Assembly (NCBI GenBank): GCA_046726415.1
Contig: JBKPAK010000095.1
Location: 1-12,595, forward strand
Length of the DNA: 12,595 nt
Direction of reading: 5' to 3'
Source: Candidatus Methylomirabilota bacterium
GTDB lineage: Bacteria; Methylomirabilota; Methylomirabilia; Rokubacteriales; CSP1-6
Shown: one piece after another, positions 2 to 9,608 of the stretch
Numbering within the stretch: position 1 is the stretch's first letter
Layout of the letters: each line of letters begins with the position of its first letter
Made by a program: the position numbers and the translations under genes
The notes under the pieces: generated by a model
The model's database searches: none
Seen by the model: the letters and a program-made list of their open reading frames with translations, nothing else
Told to the model about the DNA's origin: nothing

Positions 2-622
2 CTCGTCGGCAACACCACGGGCAACCTCAACATCGCCCTGGGGACCGGCGCGGGGTTCAACGTGACGACCGGCAGTAACAACATCCATATCTACGACGCC
101 GGTACAGATGCCGATAACGCCCTCATCCGCATCGGCACCGCAGGCACCCAGACGGCCACCTTCATCGCGGGTATCAACGGCGTCAACATCGGCATGGGGG
201 CGCCGGTGCTCGTCAACGCGAATGGCCAGCTCGGCACCATGATGTCGGCGGCTGGCTTCAAGGAGGGCATCGAGGACCTAGGCGAGGGCAGCCGCCGGCT
301 CCTCGGGCTACGGCCGGTGCGCTTTCGCTACAAGGCCCAACACGACGATCCGTCGCGGCCCGTGCAGTACGGGCTCGTGGCGGAGGAGGTGGCTGCCGTC
401 TTCCCCGAATTGGTGTACCCAGGCCCTGACGGTGCCCCGTACTCGGTGCGCTACCACCTGCTGAGCGTCCTTCTACTGAACGAACTCCAGCGGCAGGAGC
501 GAGAGTGGCGAGCGAAGAAGGCGGAGGCAGCGGCCCGCTTTGAGGCTCAGCAGGCTCAACTTGACGAGCTGCGGGCGCAGGTGCGGGCGCTGATCGGTGG
601 AAGGGCGGCGGTCAGAGAATGA
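2..622 (+). CDS. Tail-fibre-domain protein with C-terminal intramolecular chaperone (Peptidase S74-like) domain; 5'-truncated by window
   Basis: Frame open from base 2 (LVGNTTGNLNIALGTGAGFNVTTGSNNI..., Gly/Asn repeats). Then S74-type motifs FKEGIEDL, LLGLRPVRFRYK, QYGLVAEEVAAVFPELV, SVRYHLL and a C-terminal coiled coil. Confidence 0.85.
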   Translation, partial: LVGNTTGNLNIALGTGAGFNVTTGSNNIHIYDAGTDADNALIRIGTAGTQTATFIAGINGVNIGMGAPVLVNANGQLGTMMSAAGFKEGIEDLGEGSRRLLGLRPVRFRYKAQHDDPSRPVQYGLVAEEVAAVFPELVYPGPDGAPYSVRYHLLSVLLLNELQRQEREWRAKKAEAAARFEAQQAQLDELRAQVRALIGGRAAVRE

Positions 623-1769: not shown

Positions 1770-3407
1770 CTATTTCGGTTTCCCGCAGCCGACCGTCGTG
1801 AGGGAACTCGACCCGGAAATCGATAGACCATTGGCAGTCTGCCCGGTAAGGATGGCGGACGTATCACCGCACATAATGCCCGTGTCCTGAGTTTCGAATC
1901 GGACAACCATGTCGGTTCGTCCATCCCCGTCAACATCCCTGAATCGAACACTCACCGGAGTTGCCTCGCTACCGGTCCGACCAAAACGGACCGTATTGGG
2001 TTCAACGGTGGTCGCGTCAAATTCCTCTCGCGTAAAGATCACCACGGGGATTTTTCCATGGCTTTTGGGGTTAATCTTATTCGCTTCGGACCGCGGTCTG
2101 ATATCGATCACCACTTCCAAGCCCGCGGTTTGGAACTCGACGGCGCCGATATCGCAAATCCCTATGCGGGCCAATCCGAGCTGATCAGTTGGCGGGCACG
2201 CCTCAGGACGGGCGCTATCTATGGCCTGGCTACTCGCCAGCAGAGGGAAGTGGCCGCCGCCTGGAGTTCCGTCGTCGGTGAACTCGCCCAAACCGGGATC
2301 GCCGATGATATCATTCCCGAGAAGGCTGATCGTACAATCCGTGGGATCACCGATCAGGTTATGGTCTAACGAGGTAATCGCGCCAAAACAGTCGGGTCCT
2401 TTGGCGTTCACACCATCGCGGACTCTATTACCGGCCAAGATAGTGTTCTGCAGTGTCACCGTCCCCGTCCCCGGATTCTCGATGCCGCCGCCACGAAGAA
2501 CCGGACCGCCGCCAATAGTAGACGCCGTGTTGTCAGCGAGCGTGCTGTTGGCAATCATGACTGTACCAAGCAACCGGTTGGACAATGCCCCTCCGCCGCC
2601 ACCATTGACCGCGCCATGCATGGTATTACGAGCCAGTGTGCTGCTCGTAATGCTCACCGTTCCACCATTAGCGATAGCGCCACCGGCCCCGAGATTACCG
2701 AAAGTAGAGTTATCAGTAAAGGTGCTGTTGGTCACGGCGAGCATGCCTTGGTTGTTGATGGCACCTCCCGAGGCGCTGCGGTTAACGCGGACAAAATTAC
2801 TGGCAAATGTCGTGTTCGTCACGATGGTCACGGCGGCTCCGACGCCAGCAATGGCGCCACCGGATCCGCGTTGGTCCCGAACGGAGTTTCCCGTGAGGAC
2901 GCTATTCATGATTGACAGAGTCCCAAAGTTTAAGATGGCTCCGCCGGAGTCTTCGAACCCGAAAACAACTCCGGGACCGCGAACAACGCCGCCTCGTAAG
3001 GTGACTTCGTCGAGGATCAGGCTGCCGGTTGACGCAATGTGCACAAGACGAAAGACGGGGGCGGCGCCGTCCCGTTCGAGAATGGTACGGTCAGCACCAG
3101 CACCCCGAATGGTAACTGTGCTTTTGATCGACGGCAGACCGTTCGGCCCATCATCGCTATTGTTGTCCACGGTGGTTAATGTATAAGGACCCGGCCCCAA
3201 AGTGATCGTGTCCTCTTCCGGTGTGTCATTGGCCGAGTTCACCGCGGCTATGAGACAGGTGGCGTCTCCAGAGGAACAGAAAAACTCTGCGGCATGCAGC
3301 GGATGAGGAAGTACGACGGCAAAGAGAAGGAGGAGCGTTATCTTTGGTAGCATGACGCACCCCACGCAGGAGCGAGTCCGAACGGACATGGTCGCTCTGA
3401 AGGCCAT
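1770..3407 (-). CDS. Secreted right-handed beta-helix protein with GGAI(x)N repeats and choice-of-anchor-Q-like segment
   Basis: Repeated GGAILN/GGAINN/GGAIAN/GGALSN/GGGIEN motifs and LQNTILAGN...DCFG...SLDHNLIGD...SQAIDSA...DQLG...CDIGAVE. C-terminal IDIRP...DVDGDGRTD domain. Signal peptide ending PLHA-AEF. GGAGG before ATG 3407; alternative start 3353. Confidence 0.85.
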   Translation of the reverse strand: MAFRATMSVRTRSCVGCVMLPKITLLLLFAVVLPHPLHAAEFFCSSGDATCLIAAVNSANDTPEEDTITLGPGPYTLTTVDNNSDDGPNGLPSIKSTVTIRGAGADRTILERDGAAPVFRLVHIASTGSLILDEVTLRGGVVRGPGVVFGFEDSGGAILNFGTLSIMNSVLTGNSVRDQRGSGGAIAGVGAAVTIVTNTTFASNFVRVNRSASGGAINNQGMLAVTNSTFTDNSTFGNLGAGGAIANGGTVSITSSTLARNTMHGAVNGGGGGALSNRLLGTVMIANSTLADNTASTIGGGPVLRGGGIENPGTGTVTLQNTILAGNRVRDGVNAKGPDCFGAITSLDHNLIGDPTDCTISLLGNDIIGDPGLGEFTDDGTPGGGHFPLLASSQAIDSARPEACPPTDQLGLARIGICDIGAVEFQTAGLEVVIDIRPRSEANKINPKSHGKIPVVIFTREEFDATTVEPNTVRFGRTGSEATPVSVRFRDVDGDGRTDMVVRFETQDTGIMCGDTSAILTGQTANGLSISGSSSLTTVGCGKPK

Positions 3408-5657: not shown

Positions 5658-5861
5658 GTGTCACCACGGAGGTTAGCCCGAGTGATTCGCGACTTACGCG
5701 AGCAGGCGCAGATGACCAGGATGGAGTTGGCGAAGAAGGCCAAGGTGACGACCGCCTACGTCTCCATGATCGAAGCTGGCAAGCGCAAGTCGCCGTCGCT
5801 GCCGGTGCTGCGGCGGCTCGCCAAGGCTCTCGGCGTGCCGGTGGCGGAGTTGCTGGAGTAG
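5658..5861 (+). CDS. XRE/Cro-C1 family HTH transcriptional regulator
   Basis: IRDLREQAQMTRMELAKKAKVTTAYVSMIEAGKRKSPSLPVLRRLAKALGVPVAELL matches the HTH_3 pattern along its length. Confidence 0.92.
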   Translation: MSPRRLARVIRDLREQAQMTRMELAKKAKVTTAYVSMIEAGKRKSPSLPVLRRLAKALGVPVAELLE

Positions 5862-5877
5862 GCGCGGACGTAGAGAC

Positions 5878-5909
5878 GCCCGGCCCCGTGTTCACAGCAC
5901 GTGCCGGGC
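5878..5909. terminator. GC-rich stem-loop downstream of XRE gene
   Basis: GCCCGGC-cc-CGTG-[ttcacag]-CACG-t-GCCGGGC. No clear poly-U tail on either strand. Confidence 0.4.
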
Positions 5910-6730: not shown

Positions 6731-7818
6731 ATGGCGCGACGCGGTGACGGCATCTACCAGCGGGGCAAGGTGTGGTACCTGGACTTCGTTCATGAGGGCC
6801 GCCGGCACGTCGTGCGCCTCGGGCGGGCATCAACCGGACGGTCGCCCGCGAGCTGGCCAGCGTGAAGCGCGCGGGGATTCTCAAGGGCGAGGTCGGTATT
6901 GGCCCCAAGGTGCGGAATCATCCGACGTTCGAGCAGGCCAGCGCCGAGTTCCTGAAGTGGATGAACACCAACAAGAAGCCGCGCACGGCGCGAGGCTACC
7001 GGAACGCCCTCAAGCATCTGGCGCGATCGTTTGGCGGGTGCCGGCTCAGTCAGATCGATGAGCTGAGCGTCGAGCGGCACAAGCGCACCCTGGTCGAGGC
7101 CGGCCACGGCACGGCCGCCAACCGCCAGCTGGCCATCCTACGGAGCCTGTTCAACCGCTGTCGTGACGATCTGAAGGTCTACGACGGGCCGACGCCGCGC
7201 ATGCGGCTGGTGCGCGAATCACCAGGACGTCTGCGGTTCCTCGACGCCGCCGAGGAGCAGCGTCTGCTCGAGCATGTCACGGAGCCTGTGCGGACCATCA
7301 TCCTGGTGGGCACCCACACGGGCCTCAGGATCACCTCGGAGGCCCTGGCCCTCCAGAAGCAGGACGTCGACCTTGCCCGTGGCCTCCTGACCGTCCAGAC
7401 CGCCTATGCGAAGAACGGCCGGACGCGCACCGTCCCCCTCAACCGGGTGGTGCGGGCCGCGCTGGCCAGGATCTTCGAGCAGACGCCTGGCCCGTTCGTG
7501 TTTGCTCGGCGGGATGGCCGACCGCTTCGGACCATCCGCAAGCCGTTCGAGGCCGCCTGTGAGGCCGCCAAGCTCACGGACGTCACCCCCCACACTCTGC
7601 GACACACGTTCGCTTCCAAGCTGGCCATGGCCGGCGTGGACCCACGGACGATCCAAGAGTTGGGCGGCTGGCGCTCGCTCGCGATGGTCGCGCGCTACAC
7701 GCACCTGAGCCCGACCCACAAGGCCGAGGCCGTCGAGCGGATCGCCGAAAATTCCCCAACGCTTTTCACAACAGGGCCGACGGCGACGACTGGCCAGCGT
7801 CGCGTAAGTGCTTTATAG
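6731..7818 (+). CDS. int: Tyrosine recombinase/phage-type integrase (Int1) with 1-nt frameshift near 6826
   Basis: Arm-binding-like N-terminus MARRGDGIYQRGKVWYLDFVHEGRRHVVRLGR from ATG 6731 joins INRTVARELASVKRAG... in the 6862 frame. Catalytic motifs TGLR, AKNG, HTLRHTFAS, LGGW, ARYTH. Confidence 0.93.
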
Positions 7819-9125
7819 TGTTGGCCCAGGCCGGGGTAGCTCAGTGGTAGAGCAGCTGATTCGTAATCAGCAGGCCGCGGGTTCAAATCCCGCCCCCGGC
7901 TCCATTCAGAATCAATCACTTCCGAATCGTCGCGTCCTCCGAAAGGGCGGTTTGGTTCCACTTTTGGTTCCAGATCAGCGAGCAGAGCCTCCGCCGTGGC
8001 CTTCAGGTCGTCCCGTCGATCGAGGACCTCGACCCAGCGCTGGCCCCTGGACGGAATCCACCGGGCGTAGAAGCGGAGCGTCGTGGCGGGATTGGCGTGG
8101 CCGAGCTGCGCGGCGACGTACGTGATCGGCGCGTTGCGCGCCAAGAGCAGGCTCGCGAAGGTGTGGCGGAGATCGTAGACTCGGAAGGCGGGCAGGCCGG
8201 CTCGCCTGAGCACTCCGCGGAAGACCCGGCCCACCTTGGTCTCGTCCATTGGTCGGCCCACCTCACTCGGAAAAAGCCACTCGGGCTGGCCCCAGCCGCA
8301 CCGGAACGCCTCCGCCTTGAGCCATGTCAGGTGCTCGAGGAGGATCCGGGTGAGGTTTCGGCTCATCTCTACGGCACGTTGGTCGTGGGTCTTCGTGTCC
8401 TTCTCGCGCCTCAGGCTCCACGCGCGCTCCACGCGGATCAGACGTTGGGGGAAGTCGAGATCGCCCGGTCGCAGTGCGAAGCCCTCGCCCGGGCGCAGGC
8501 CTGCGTAGACCAGCGTTGCGAAGAGCGCGAAGTGCCGCCGCTCAGCCGCTGCCGCGTCGAGGAACGCTTGGCGTTGCTCCCACGTCATCGGCCGGATGCG
8601 CTGTACACGCTCGGACTGGGTCAGCTTGTTGGCGCGACCGCCGAGACGGCGGCCGAGCTGGAGCGCCGGGTTGACGGGGATGAGGCCGTCATCCACGGCC
8701 TCGGAGAGCAGCGCCGAGAGCGGGGCCTTCATGAGCCGCACGCTGTTCTTCGAATGCCCCTGCCGGCGCTTCTCAGCAAGGAACGCCTTGATGTGCGCGC
8801 GGTGGATCAAGCGCAGTTTCAAGTGGCCGAGCGCGGGCAGCACGTGACGCTTGAGGCGCTCGGCGTAGCTCCGGTGCGTATTGGGTGCCCGGTCCGCTTC
8901 CACCATCGCCAGCCAGCGCGTGGCGTACTCGCGGAGCGTGATCTCACGGTCCTGGATGACAGGTAGGACTTGTCCGACGCGGCGGAAGACCTCGGTCGCA
9001 AACTCGTGCGCAGCCTCCTCGGTCGAGAAGAGGGGCCGACGGCGCACGCCATCGATGTCGCGATAGTCGACCTCCCAGACGCCGCGGTTCTTGCGGAAGC
9101 GGATCGTGACCTTCGCTCTCGCCAT
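7695..9125 (-). CDS. int: Tyrosine recombinase/phage-type integrase (Int2); ORF reads through the tRNA antisense
   Basis: Arm-binding-like N-terminus (RGVWEVDYRDIDGVRRR), core-binding region, catalytic motifs AGLRPGE, DTKT, YDLRHTFAS, QLGH, LRFYA. GGAGG SD upstream. Confidence 0.95.
   Translation of the reverse strand: MARAKVTIRFRKNRGVWEVDYRDIDGVRRRPLFSTEEAAHEFATEVFRRVGQVLPVIQDREITLREYATRWLAMVEADRAPNTHRSYAERLKRHVLPALGHLKLRLIHRAHIKAFLAEKRRQGHSKNSVRLMKAPLSALLSEAVDDGLIPVNPALQLGRRLGGRANKLTQSERVQRIRPMTWEQRQAFLDAAAAERRHFALFATLVYAGLRPGEGFALRPGDLDFPQRLIRVERAWSLRREKDTKTHDQRAVEMSRNLTRILLEHLTWLKAEAFRCGWGQPEWLFPSEVGRPMDETKVGRVFRGVLRRAGLPAFRVYDLRHTFASLLLARNAPITYVAAQLGHANPATTLRFYARWIPSRGQRWVEVLDRRDDLKATAEALLADLEPKVEPNRPFGGRDDSEVIDSEWSRGRDLNPRPADYESAALPLSYPGLGQHYKALTRRWPVVAVGPVVKSVGEFSAIRSTASALWVGLRCV
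7791..7819 (+). promoter_or_regulatory. Putative sigma70 promoter for tRNA-Thr inside int1 3' end
   Basis: TGGCCA (7791-7796), 17 nt, TATAGT (7814-7819). Mature tRNA starts at 7830. Confidence 0.55.
7830..7904 (+). tRNA. tRNA-Thr(CGT)
   Basis: Full cloverleaf: acceptor GCCGGGG/CCCCGGC, D arm GCTC/GAGC, anticodon arm GCTGA-TT-CGT-AA-TCAGC, T arm GCGGG-TTCAAAT-CCCGC, discriminator T, encoded CCA at 7902-7904. Confidence 0.98.
7910..7972 (+). promoter_or_regulatory. Putative att arm of right element: IHF-like site plus arm-type direct repeats
   Basis: AATCAATCACTTC (7910-7922) has 1 mismatch to WATCAANNNNTTR. TTTGGTTCCA occurs at 7951-7960 and 7963-7972. Confidence 0.6.
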
Positions 9126-9137
9126 CGCCTCCTCGAC

Positions 9138-9608
9138 TCAGATCATCGGAGACCTGCGTGGTCGCCCGGCCGGGCTGGTGAGACGGGTCGGCTGCATGTC
9201 TCTGCGAGGATTGAGCGACTCTATGGGGCGCTGTCCATCTTCGTCAACGTCACGCTTCGGATACGCCAGCCACTGCCGCAGTCCCCCGACCGAGATCATC
9301 CAGTACTTCCCGGACTTCGTCGCCGGGATCCGGCCGGTCCGGCACAGCTCGTGGACATAGGCCGCCTTGAGGCTCAGGCTCTCGGCGACCTGCTGGGGCG
9401 TCAGGTGCCGCAGTTCCTCGACGGAATCTATGGCGAGCGGTGCCGTCCGGGTGGTCGTCACGCTCACCAGGCGCTGCCAGAGGATGGCCTTGAGGCGTTC
9501 GAGACCGCCGAGGAGTTCGACGAGGTGCGGCTGCCCGGCGGTGTTGATCGTGCGCTCCAGGGAGAGGAGCAGGTCGGGTTCGGGATCAGGTGGGGTGGTC
9601 GACGTCAT
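9138..9608 (-). CDS. Excisionase-type (HTH_17/MerR-like) DNA-binding protein
   Basis: HLTPQQVAESLSLKAAYVHELCRTGRIPATKSGKYWMISVGGLRQWL. Ends 12 bp upstream of int2 on the same strand. Confidence 0.85.
   Translation of the reverse strand: MTSTTPPDPEPDLLLSLERTINTAGQPHLVELLGGLERLKAILWQRLVSVTTTRTAPLAIDSVEELRHLTPQQVAESLSLKAAYVHELCRTGRIPATKSGKYWMISVGGLRQWLAYPKRDVDEDGQRPIESLNPRRDMQPTRLTSPAGRPRRSPMI

Follow-up and report, generated by a model that had tools for sequence, protein, structure and literature searches.

A 12,595-bp contig from a Candidatus Methylomirabilota bacterium (C95; GenBank JBKPAK010000095.1) carries a tRNA-Thr(CGT) gene with two different tyrosine integrase genes pointing at it, one from each side. 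The window analyzed here is this entire contig, which belongs to a metagenome-assembled genome of 352 contigs (7.6 Mb, 67.5% guanine plus cytosine (GC), 98% complete). We conclude that this one tRNA-Thr(CGU) gene is probably occupied from opposite sides, either by two integrative elements that are independent of each other or by one element and what remains of another. The conclusion is carried by the geometry of the locus, by a repeat of the 3′ portion of the tRNA, by the behavior of the clade to which the left-hand integrase (Int1) belongs, and by displaced 5′ tRNA fragments in its relatives. Judged from these sequence comparisons, the element of Int1 appears to have integrated here as the elements of its relatives did.

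The intact tRNA gene (7830-7904, forward strand) is the single tRNA called by ARAGORN in the window, scores 77.6 bits with Rfam (gathering score 29), and is unique among the 46 tRNAs of the genome. Int1 is encoded upstream on the same strand (6731..7818; ATG at 6731, stop codon at 7816-7818), leaving a spacer of 11 bp (7819-7829) before the tRNA 5′ end. The right-hand integrase, Int2, is a 476-amino acid open frame on the reverse strand (9125..7695) that enters the tRNA from its 3′ end. Both proteins match PF00589 well above its cut-off of 27.1 bits (Int1, 112.1 bits, E-value 3.2e-32; Int2, 78.6 bits, E-value 6.3e-22, residues 182-355), and both match phrog_1 (5.4e-61 for Int1 and 8.7e-66 for Int2). 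Int2 also has SAM-like N-terminal domains. The catalytic motif of tyrosine recombinases consists of Arg, His-x-x-Arg, and Tyr, and all of these residues, as judged by eye, are present in Int1 (TGLRITSE, HTLRHTF, ARYTHL) and in Int2 (AGLRPGE, YDLRHTF, LRFYARW). The two integrases share 25% identity over 268 amino acids. An initial annotation, made from the sequence alone, had described two clearly different tyrosine integrases at one intact tRNA, one stopping 11 bp before its 5′ end and the other entering from its 3′ end, with no host gene on either side. This description holds. There is no recognizable housekeeping gene in the window, and its open reading frames other than those named here have no family in Pfam or PHROG.

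The right-hand element appears to be an ordinary 3′-side island that uses an anticodon-centered site. Its attachment (att) repeat of 48 bp (7859..7906, forward strand) extends from tRNA position 30 to two nucleotides past the CCA, and a displaced copy that matches it at 47 of 48 positions is found on another contig (C172:3937-3984; E-value 1e-16 to 4e-18). Within the tRNA, the copy starts at the last anticodon stem pair and ends two bases beyond the CCA, in the same orientation as written, and it is not called as a tRNA by ARAGORN or by Rfam. Upstream of the copy are an alpha/beta hydrolase gene and the end of a transposase, and downstream are the flank 'TTGTTCTCGGGCACTTCC', a short stretch with no known family, a GT2 glycosyltransferase gene, and an Opp-type ABC transporter. 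The first 20 nucleotides of this flank resemble the 3′ flank 'TTGTTTTTCAACGCACTTCC' of tRNA-Thr(CGT) in the loci L166-L169. Because these loci lack a 3′-side integrase, the C172 flank fits native DNA. Thus, the 3′ fragment that was predicted when the right-hand element was proposed to supply the tRNA 3′ end is indeed present, with a native-looking flank and genes after it.

Int2 is adjoined by an excisionase-like HTH_17 gene (9138-9608, reverse strand; HTH_17 6.5e-9; PHROG excisionase 3.6e-5 and DNA-binding protein 1e-9). Across the phylum, we surveyed 30 loci of the Int2 family, counting the locus described here. The integrase converges on the 3′ end of a tRNA at 14 of these, lacks a nearby tRNA at 16, and is co-directional at none. 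The Int2 relatives are located mainly at tRNA-Lys genes without an Int1 relative. The right-hand element shares with canonical 3′-side islands an opposite-strand integrase adjoining the tRNA, an excisionase-like neighbor, and a direct repeat from the anticodon stem to the 3′ end, and it differs in having its far end on another contig. P22 at thrW is a 3′-side tRNA-integrating prophage with a crossover in the anticodon loop, and the right-hand site presumably resembles this site. Anticodon-centered sites are reported for 2083 of the 3919 islands counted in the Islander collection (PMC4383910).

We surveyed the Int1 family in 251 genomes of the phylum plus the species collection. The genomes G011, G075, and G116 contribute to tallies only, and no conclusion depends on them. 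The 33 loci comprise 10 that are co-directional with a tRNA (the locus described here included), 13 that are convergent, and 10 without a tRNA, 3 of these at a contig end. At the co-directional loci, the integrase stop codon lies between -37 and +21 nucleotides from the tRNA 5′ end. The layout tracks phylogeny on a quick maximum-likelihood tree (27 rows with Int2 as outgroup, after omission of the six rows whose match covered less than 180 residues), on which only two changes of layout are needed. The clade of Int1 itself receives a value of 100 in the Shimodaira-Hasegawa-like approximate likelihood ratio test, and has five members, three of which are linked to a tRNA, all on its 5′ side. Metagenome contigs yield another 27 close relatives (at least 45% identity), with 19 on the 5′ side of a tRNA, none on the 3′ side, and eight without a tRNA, although six of these eight have less than 150 nucleotides of sequence remaining. 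Several of these contigs are near-copies of each other, and so the metagenome loci are not independent.

Displaced 5′ tRNA fragments, which are the expected trace of 5′-side integration, are present in five of the seven other genomes that have the 5′-side layout. Genome G041 has a 42-bp fragment of its tRNA-Lys(CTT) that matches at 41 of 42 positions, and G023 has a fragment of 73 bp. The target in G082 is also tRNA-Thr(CGT), where the integrase is 58-60% identical to Int1 and the fragment is 39 bp long with 100% identity, preceded by a match to a promoter (TTGACC-N17-TACGGT). In G197, the fragment is located on the same contig and strand as the intact tRNA-Arg(TCT), about 29.8 kb upstream, and the island within this interval includes Prim-Pol, DUF927, insertion sequence element, and solute-binding genes. 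In G208, a 41-bp fragment with 100% identity lies about 7.4 kb upstream of the tRNA on the same contig, and the interval encloses a cargo of Na/Ca, Na/H, and CNNM transporters. Thus, in both G197 and G208, the 5′ fragment, the island, and the tRNA are resolved on one contig in the expected configuration. All five fragments stop at the anticodon loop's 3′ edge or no more than three bases from it, with unrelated DNA beyond, which indicates that elements of the Int1 clade carry the 5′ half of a tRNA and not the whole gene.

Two-sided occupancy recurs in other assemblies, and two further genomes have a tRNA flanked by convergent integrases. The cleanest replicate is G208, in which a tRNA-Arg(TCT) lies between two integrases and is represented by a 5′ as well as a 3′ fragment (L142; G208:C60, 1-8000). 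Its 3′ fragment, 47 bp in length, is on a different contig (G208:C21:30290-30336). The second is the 20-contig genome G002 from the same genus, where a tRNA-Lys(TTT) lies between two integrases on one contig (L118; G002:C11, 469-2475). The upstream gene is Int1-like, frameshifted, and internally deleted, and it abuts the tRNA, and the downstream gene codes for a converging Int2-like integrase with a 3′ fragment 5.9 kb downstream on the same contig. The two-sided layout is also seen on contigs L146, L159, and L164. The two kinds of insertion also occur separately. No 3′-side integrase is evident at nine of the 11 5′-side metagenome loci that have at least 300 nucleotides past the tRNA, and none was found within 1.4-2.8 kb in G082 and G041.

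Several observations weigh against the conclusion that two elements are present. The displaced 5′ fragment of tRNA-Thr(CGT) is absent from all 352 contigs, as determined by blastn-short with a word size of 7 and by an ungapped 47-mer scan of both strands. The best matches outside of C95 are other tRNAs at no more than 33 of 47 positions or matches of 14-19 bp, which is chance size. One of these, an 18/19 match on C306, was rejected as a 5′ fragment because of its chance size and its location inside coding-looking DNA. The assembly is fragmented, and this result covers the assembled contigs and not the whole cell. Among the relatives with a 5′-side layout, searches of G067 and G002 likewise found no clean 5′ fragment. 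The displaced 3′ fragment on C172 is on a separate contig from the tRNA, and hence their relative position and orientation are not visible. In addition, two loci with Int1 relatives at tRNA-Thr(CGT), L145 and L146, have either a 3′ flank of the type seen here or part of an Int2-like gene, and therefore the Int1/Int2 pair may travel together above chance. No contig from public sequencing runs bridges Int1 to Int2, and one piece (7416-7837) enters the tRNA from int1 by only eight nucleotides. The left-hand region has a single phage-like gene, and the abutting contig C270 is not clearly prophage. Lastly, Int1 is frameshifted in the window sequence, and any activity of it here is an inference.

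The break in Int1 had been overlooked in the initial annotation. The frame shifts after 32 codons, such that the frame from the ATG ends at 6863-6865 and the remainder is in another frame from about 6829. At 6827-6828, only two nucleotides take the place of a full codon of the G082 homolog, which in the intact allele P0003 specifies Gly. P0003, which was found in metagenomes, is 362 amino acids long and 99% identical, and further intact relatives are 84-85% identical. The absent base lies in a run of G nucleotides (6824-6831). The frameshift may have truly inactivated the gene or may have arisen from an assembly slip in this run.

The missing 5′ fragment leaves the proposal that the left-hand element supplies the tRNA's 5′ end only partly upheld. 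The behavior of the clade and the 5′ fragments in relatives speak for it, and the absence of a displaced 5′ fragment from this assembly speaks against it. The combination that had been named as damaging to this proposal was a missing 5′ fragment together with Int1 homologs that are not linked to tRNA 5′ ends. Only the fragment is missing, and the homologs are linked in the numbers given above. Since no 5′ fragment was found, the far end of the left-hand element is not defined in this genome. A search for an empty site by synteny, using the C172 flank DNA against 40 relatives, returned scattered matches at the level of paralogs, and tblastx with the flanks of tRNA-Thr(CGT) in relatives produced no consistent contig for the host DNA on the left. 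The short contigs from four soil-metagenome runs, which break at the tRNA, contain no attB or attP junctions and no evidence on the frameshift. A scan of viral contigs found no Int1 relative.

Of the alternative explanations, the one that survives best, although we consider it unlikely, is that Int1 is an old and vertically inherited relic, retained for the tRNA promoter and 5′ half at its 3′ end, and that only the right-hand island is current. Decay of this kind is visible in the frameshift of Int1 itself, in the Int1-like gene of G002, which still abuts its tRNA despite a frameshift and an internal deletion, and in L166-L169, which retain only residues 270-311 of an Int1-like gene. Also in its favor, neither this genome nor G002 retains a 5′ fragment. 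However, the intact P0003 allele at 99% identity and the intact relatives at 84-85% do not suggest an old relic, the missing base could be an assembly error given its place in a G run, and low-GC DNA without known families persists on the left together with a tail-fibre-like gene. This explanation is a late stage of the one we favor and does not contradict it. The loci L166-L169 are near-identical to each other, and each carries about 40 codons of the Int1-like C-terminus roughly 100 nucleotides upstream of tRNA-Thr(CGT). They look like a decayed 5′-side element of which the tRNA-proximal end survives, next to a native-looking 3′ flank.

Somewhat harder to sustain, and quite improbable in our judgment, is the possibility that the contig merges sequences from two subpopulations, one with the 5′-side element and one with the 3′-side element, that the assembler joined through the shared 75-bp tRNA, such that no cell has both. 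Repeats the size of a tRNA are a classic cause of chimeric assembly joins. The window is the whole of one contig from a metagenome-assembled genome, and so the physical linkage of Int1, tRNA, and Int2 depends on one assembly. The public-run contigs that end at the tRNA without bridging it would also be expected from such a mixture. Yet the bin includes neither an alternative 5′ flank for the tRNA nor a contig in which the tRNA is joined to its native 3′ flank. The sole copy of the native-looking 3′ flank, on C172, is preceded by a bare fragment, which indicates that the population represented by the assembly does carry the 3′ element as an insertion. Moreover, the same layout is present in independent assemblies, namely G002 (on a single contig), G208, and L146.

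We regard as very unlikely the last alternative, also raised in the initial annotation, of one composite mobile element that carries both integrases and its own tRNA-Thr as cargo or as an internal att remnant and not as a host gene: although L146 and probably also L145 combine Int1-like and Int2-like genes or flank at tRNA-Thr(CGT), with nucleotide identities to the window of 71-82%, no host gene is present in the window, and phage-borne tRNAs that complement lysogeny are described in at least one report (PMC10865867), tRNA-Thr(CGT) is unique in a 98%-complete genome, the 48-bp 3′ fragment beside a native-looking flank is consistent with an insertion into precisely this gene, the two integrase families are apart in most loci, and the 5′ fragments of the Int1 clade are followed by unrelated DNA, meaning that half of a tRNA is carried.

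If two elements do share the gene, both integrases would recombine at the anticodon stem-loop, with cores that overlap on the loop. The block of identity in the Int1 clade ends at about tRNA position 38-41, and that of Int2 starts at position 30. The right-hand element would extend from 7907 rightwards, with Int2 and the excisionase-like gene, and continue on other contigs. Its attP would have carried tRNA positions 30-75 plus two nucleotides, and by integrating it would have pushed the original 3′ part of the host gene out to its far end, where this part is now seen on C172 beside the native flank. A terminator-like hairpin to the right of the tRNA, with GTTTGGTT after it (7933..7949, forward strand; one found versus 0.4 expected), putatively a functional terminator, might also have been brought by this element. 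Just beyond it are two direct copies of TTGGTTCCA that are 12 bp apart (7952..7972, forward strand; starts at 7952 and 7964). This sequence occurs just 23 times in the 7.6-Mb genome when both strands are counted, and the doublet is also found 3′ of tRNA-Thr in the diverged metagenome contig L146 (approximately 1330-1350), beside the Int2-like gene. The pair is a candidate for arm-type binding sites of Int2.

The left-hand element would extend from a tail-fibre-like gene through Int1 and end at the tRNA. The tail-fibre-like gene is a 3′ part (2..622, forward strand) whose frame is open at the left end of the contig, and it encodes a tail-fibre-like C-terminus with matches to Peptidase_S74 in Pfam (9.4e-10) and to tail fibre and virion structural families in PHROG (5.9e-7 to 2e-4). 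We consider it to be cargo of the left-hand element. The GC content of positions 2001-3000 is 57.7%, versus 67.5% genome-wide, which also favors element DNA on the left. The left attP would include the 5′ part of the tRNA, beginning slightly upstream of position 1 and reaching the anticodon loop, placed directly after the int stop codon. Because integration on this side displaces the host's own 5′ half and promoter, a 5′-side element must supply both. The last 30 nucleotides of int1 would house a promoter-like site that serves the tRNA. This site, TGGCCA-N17-TATAGT (7791..7819, forward strand), is located inside the 3′ end of Int1 and ends 10 nucleotides before the tRNA. It is the sole sigma-70-like match in 7600-8100, where shuffled sequences yield 0.1 expected, and it is predicted to drive the restored tRNA.

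A related observation concerns the motif TAAGT, which is present 6-21 nucleotides upstream of the tRNA start in seven of 10 5′-side loci versus none of four host-side flanks of displaced fragments. It occurs at 7805-7812 in the window and in the 75 nucleotides upstream of the tRNA in L047, L064, L068, L069, L070, and L075. Since TAAGT encodes the conserved C-terminal ...RVSAL in the Int1 relatives, the constraint may act on DNA (promoter or att) or on protein.

The open frame of Int2 runs antisense through the att core and the whole tRNA and reaches the last part of int1. About 50 codons separate the catalytic domain from the att core, and the frame continues for about 120 codons beyond this domain. 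The frame is 476 amino acids long in the integrated form versus 444 amino acids in a modelled attP junction, and so the C-terminal tail would be predicted to differ between free and integrated forms, as has been described for Mx8. We assign no functional meaning to the extension because long stop-free extensions are common in DNA of 67% GC. Integrase genes that cross attP have been noted for Mx8 and SSV, as cited in the Islander report (PMC4383910). The Int2 frame likewise crosses the att core in both the integrated and the modelled attP forms, whereas its catalytic domain is complete before the core is reached and the surrounding DNA is GC-rich.

Other contigs of the genome share sequences with the window. 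Its leftmost 100 nucleotides (1-100) are the right end of C270 (G000:C270:24065-24164), and a second tail-fibre-like gene on C270 (10737-11120) has 85% DNA identity to positions 11-394. C270 was rejected as a prophage or as the left end of the element, as it carries a FabG-like gene, a transposase, phrog_2034, and ORFs of no assigned function besides the second tail-fibre-like gene. The virion, packaging, and lysis gene set of a prophage was not encountered on the left, where the window contributes the tail-fibre-like C-terminus and C270 contributes the second such gene and phrog_2034. At its right end, the window shares 86% identity with G000:C197:1211-1607, and an Int2 paralog with 63% identity is found at G000:C193:9657-10784. 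On the basis of this paralog and of the resemblance to C197, the genome probably contains a related second element. On C172 (L004), a stretch of about 112 bp (5785-5896) is 79-89% conserved in several related genomes and in G000:C200, and has no Rfam match. Genome G067 has two near-copies (94%) of tRNA-Arg(CCT) with its downstream flank, in L085 (C195) and L052 (C37). The copy on C195 has an integrase C-terminus and an intact tRNA-Arg(CCT), and that on C37 has a truncated int frame fused to the tRNA from position 13.

The two kinds of insertion proposed here are each known, and the locus is most likely an uncommon combination rather than something new. The premise of the initial annotation that 5′-side elements are much less common than 3′-side ones agrees with the counts available to us. 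In Table 1 of the Islander report, 159 islands have a 5′ fragment of the tRNA gene (tDNA) versus 3760 with a 3′ fragment, of 3919 in total (PMC4383910), and the figure given for S. meliloti is nine of 88 phage-related sequences that match a tRNA 5′ end (PMC11476347). The left-hand side of our locus is like this minority class in having an integrase-bearing island upstream of an intact tRNA whose 5′ part is restored, which is the signature shown by the Int1 relatives. It is unlike this class in that the genome yielded no 5′ fragment and that the integrase is frameshifted. The same collection lists 125 tandems of two or more islands (PMC4383910). As in such tandems, more than one element here uses the same tRNA gene, but tandem islands are stacked on the 3′ side, whereas the two elements at our locus are on opposite sides and each would supply a different half of the gene. 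A limited keyword search of the literature found no description of opposite-side co-occupancy of one tDNA, which is weak evidence of its absence.

The accepted picture of tRNA-targeted integration is unchanged by these findings. They indicate that the rarer 5′-side use can coexist with the common 3′-side use at one tRNA gene, with replicates in other genomes. This is relevant to island-finding software, which mostly assumes that the integrase and the fragment are on the 3′ side. The Int1 clade is a sizeable and coherent set of 5′-side integrases that could be used to study what determines the side of integration. This clade and the int 3′ ends that persist beside tRNAs are the aspects most worth following.

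More tentatively, we envision a broader explanation that is possible but that we hold with clearly less confidence than the presence of two elements. Int1 might represent a widespread clade of soil-bacterial integrases specialized for integration on the 5′ side of tRNAs, in which the last int codons overlap the donated promoter. At a single-copy tRNA, the host would then depend on the int 3′ end, and this end would for that reason outlive the rest of the element, as might be reflected in the frameshifted, internally deleted, and 40-codon forms. Together with a 3′-side island, an essential tRNA would come to consist wholly of mobile-element DNA. The locus bears on the dependence of hosts upon the remnants of elements, and suggests that a tRNA present in one copy can turn, together with its promoter, into a patchwork to which two mobile elements contribute. 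If both insertions are true, the one tRNA-Thr(CGU) gene that the cell has would, from its promoter through its terminator, be made of element DNA with the junction in the anticodon loop.

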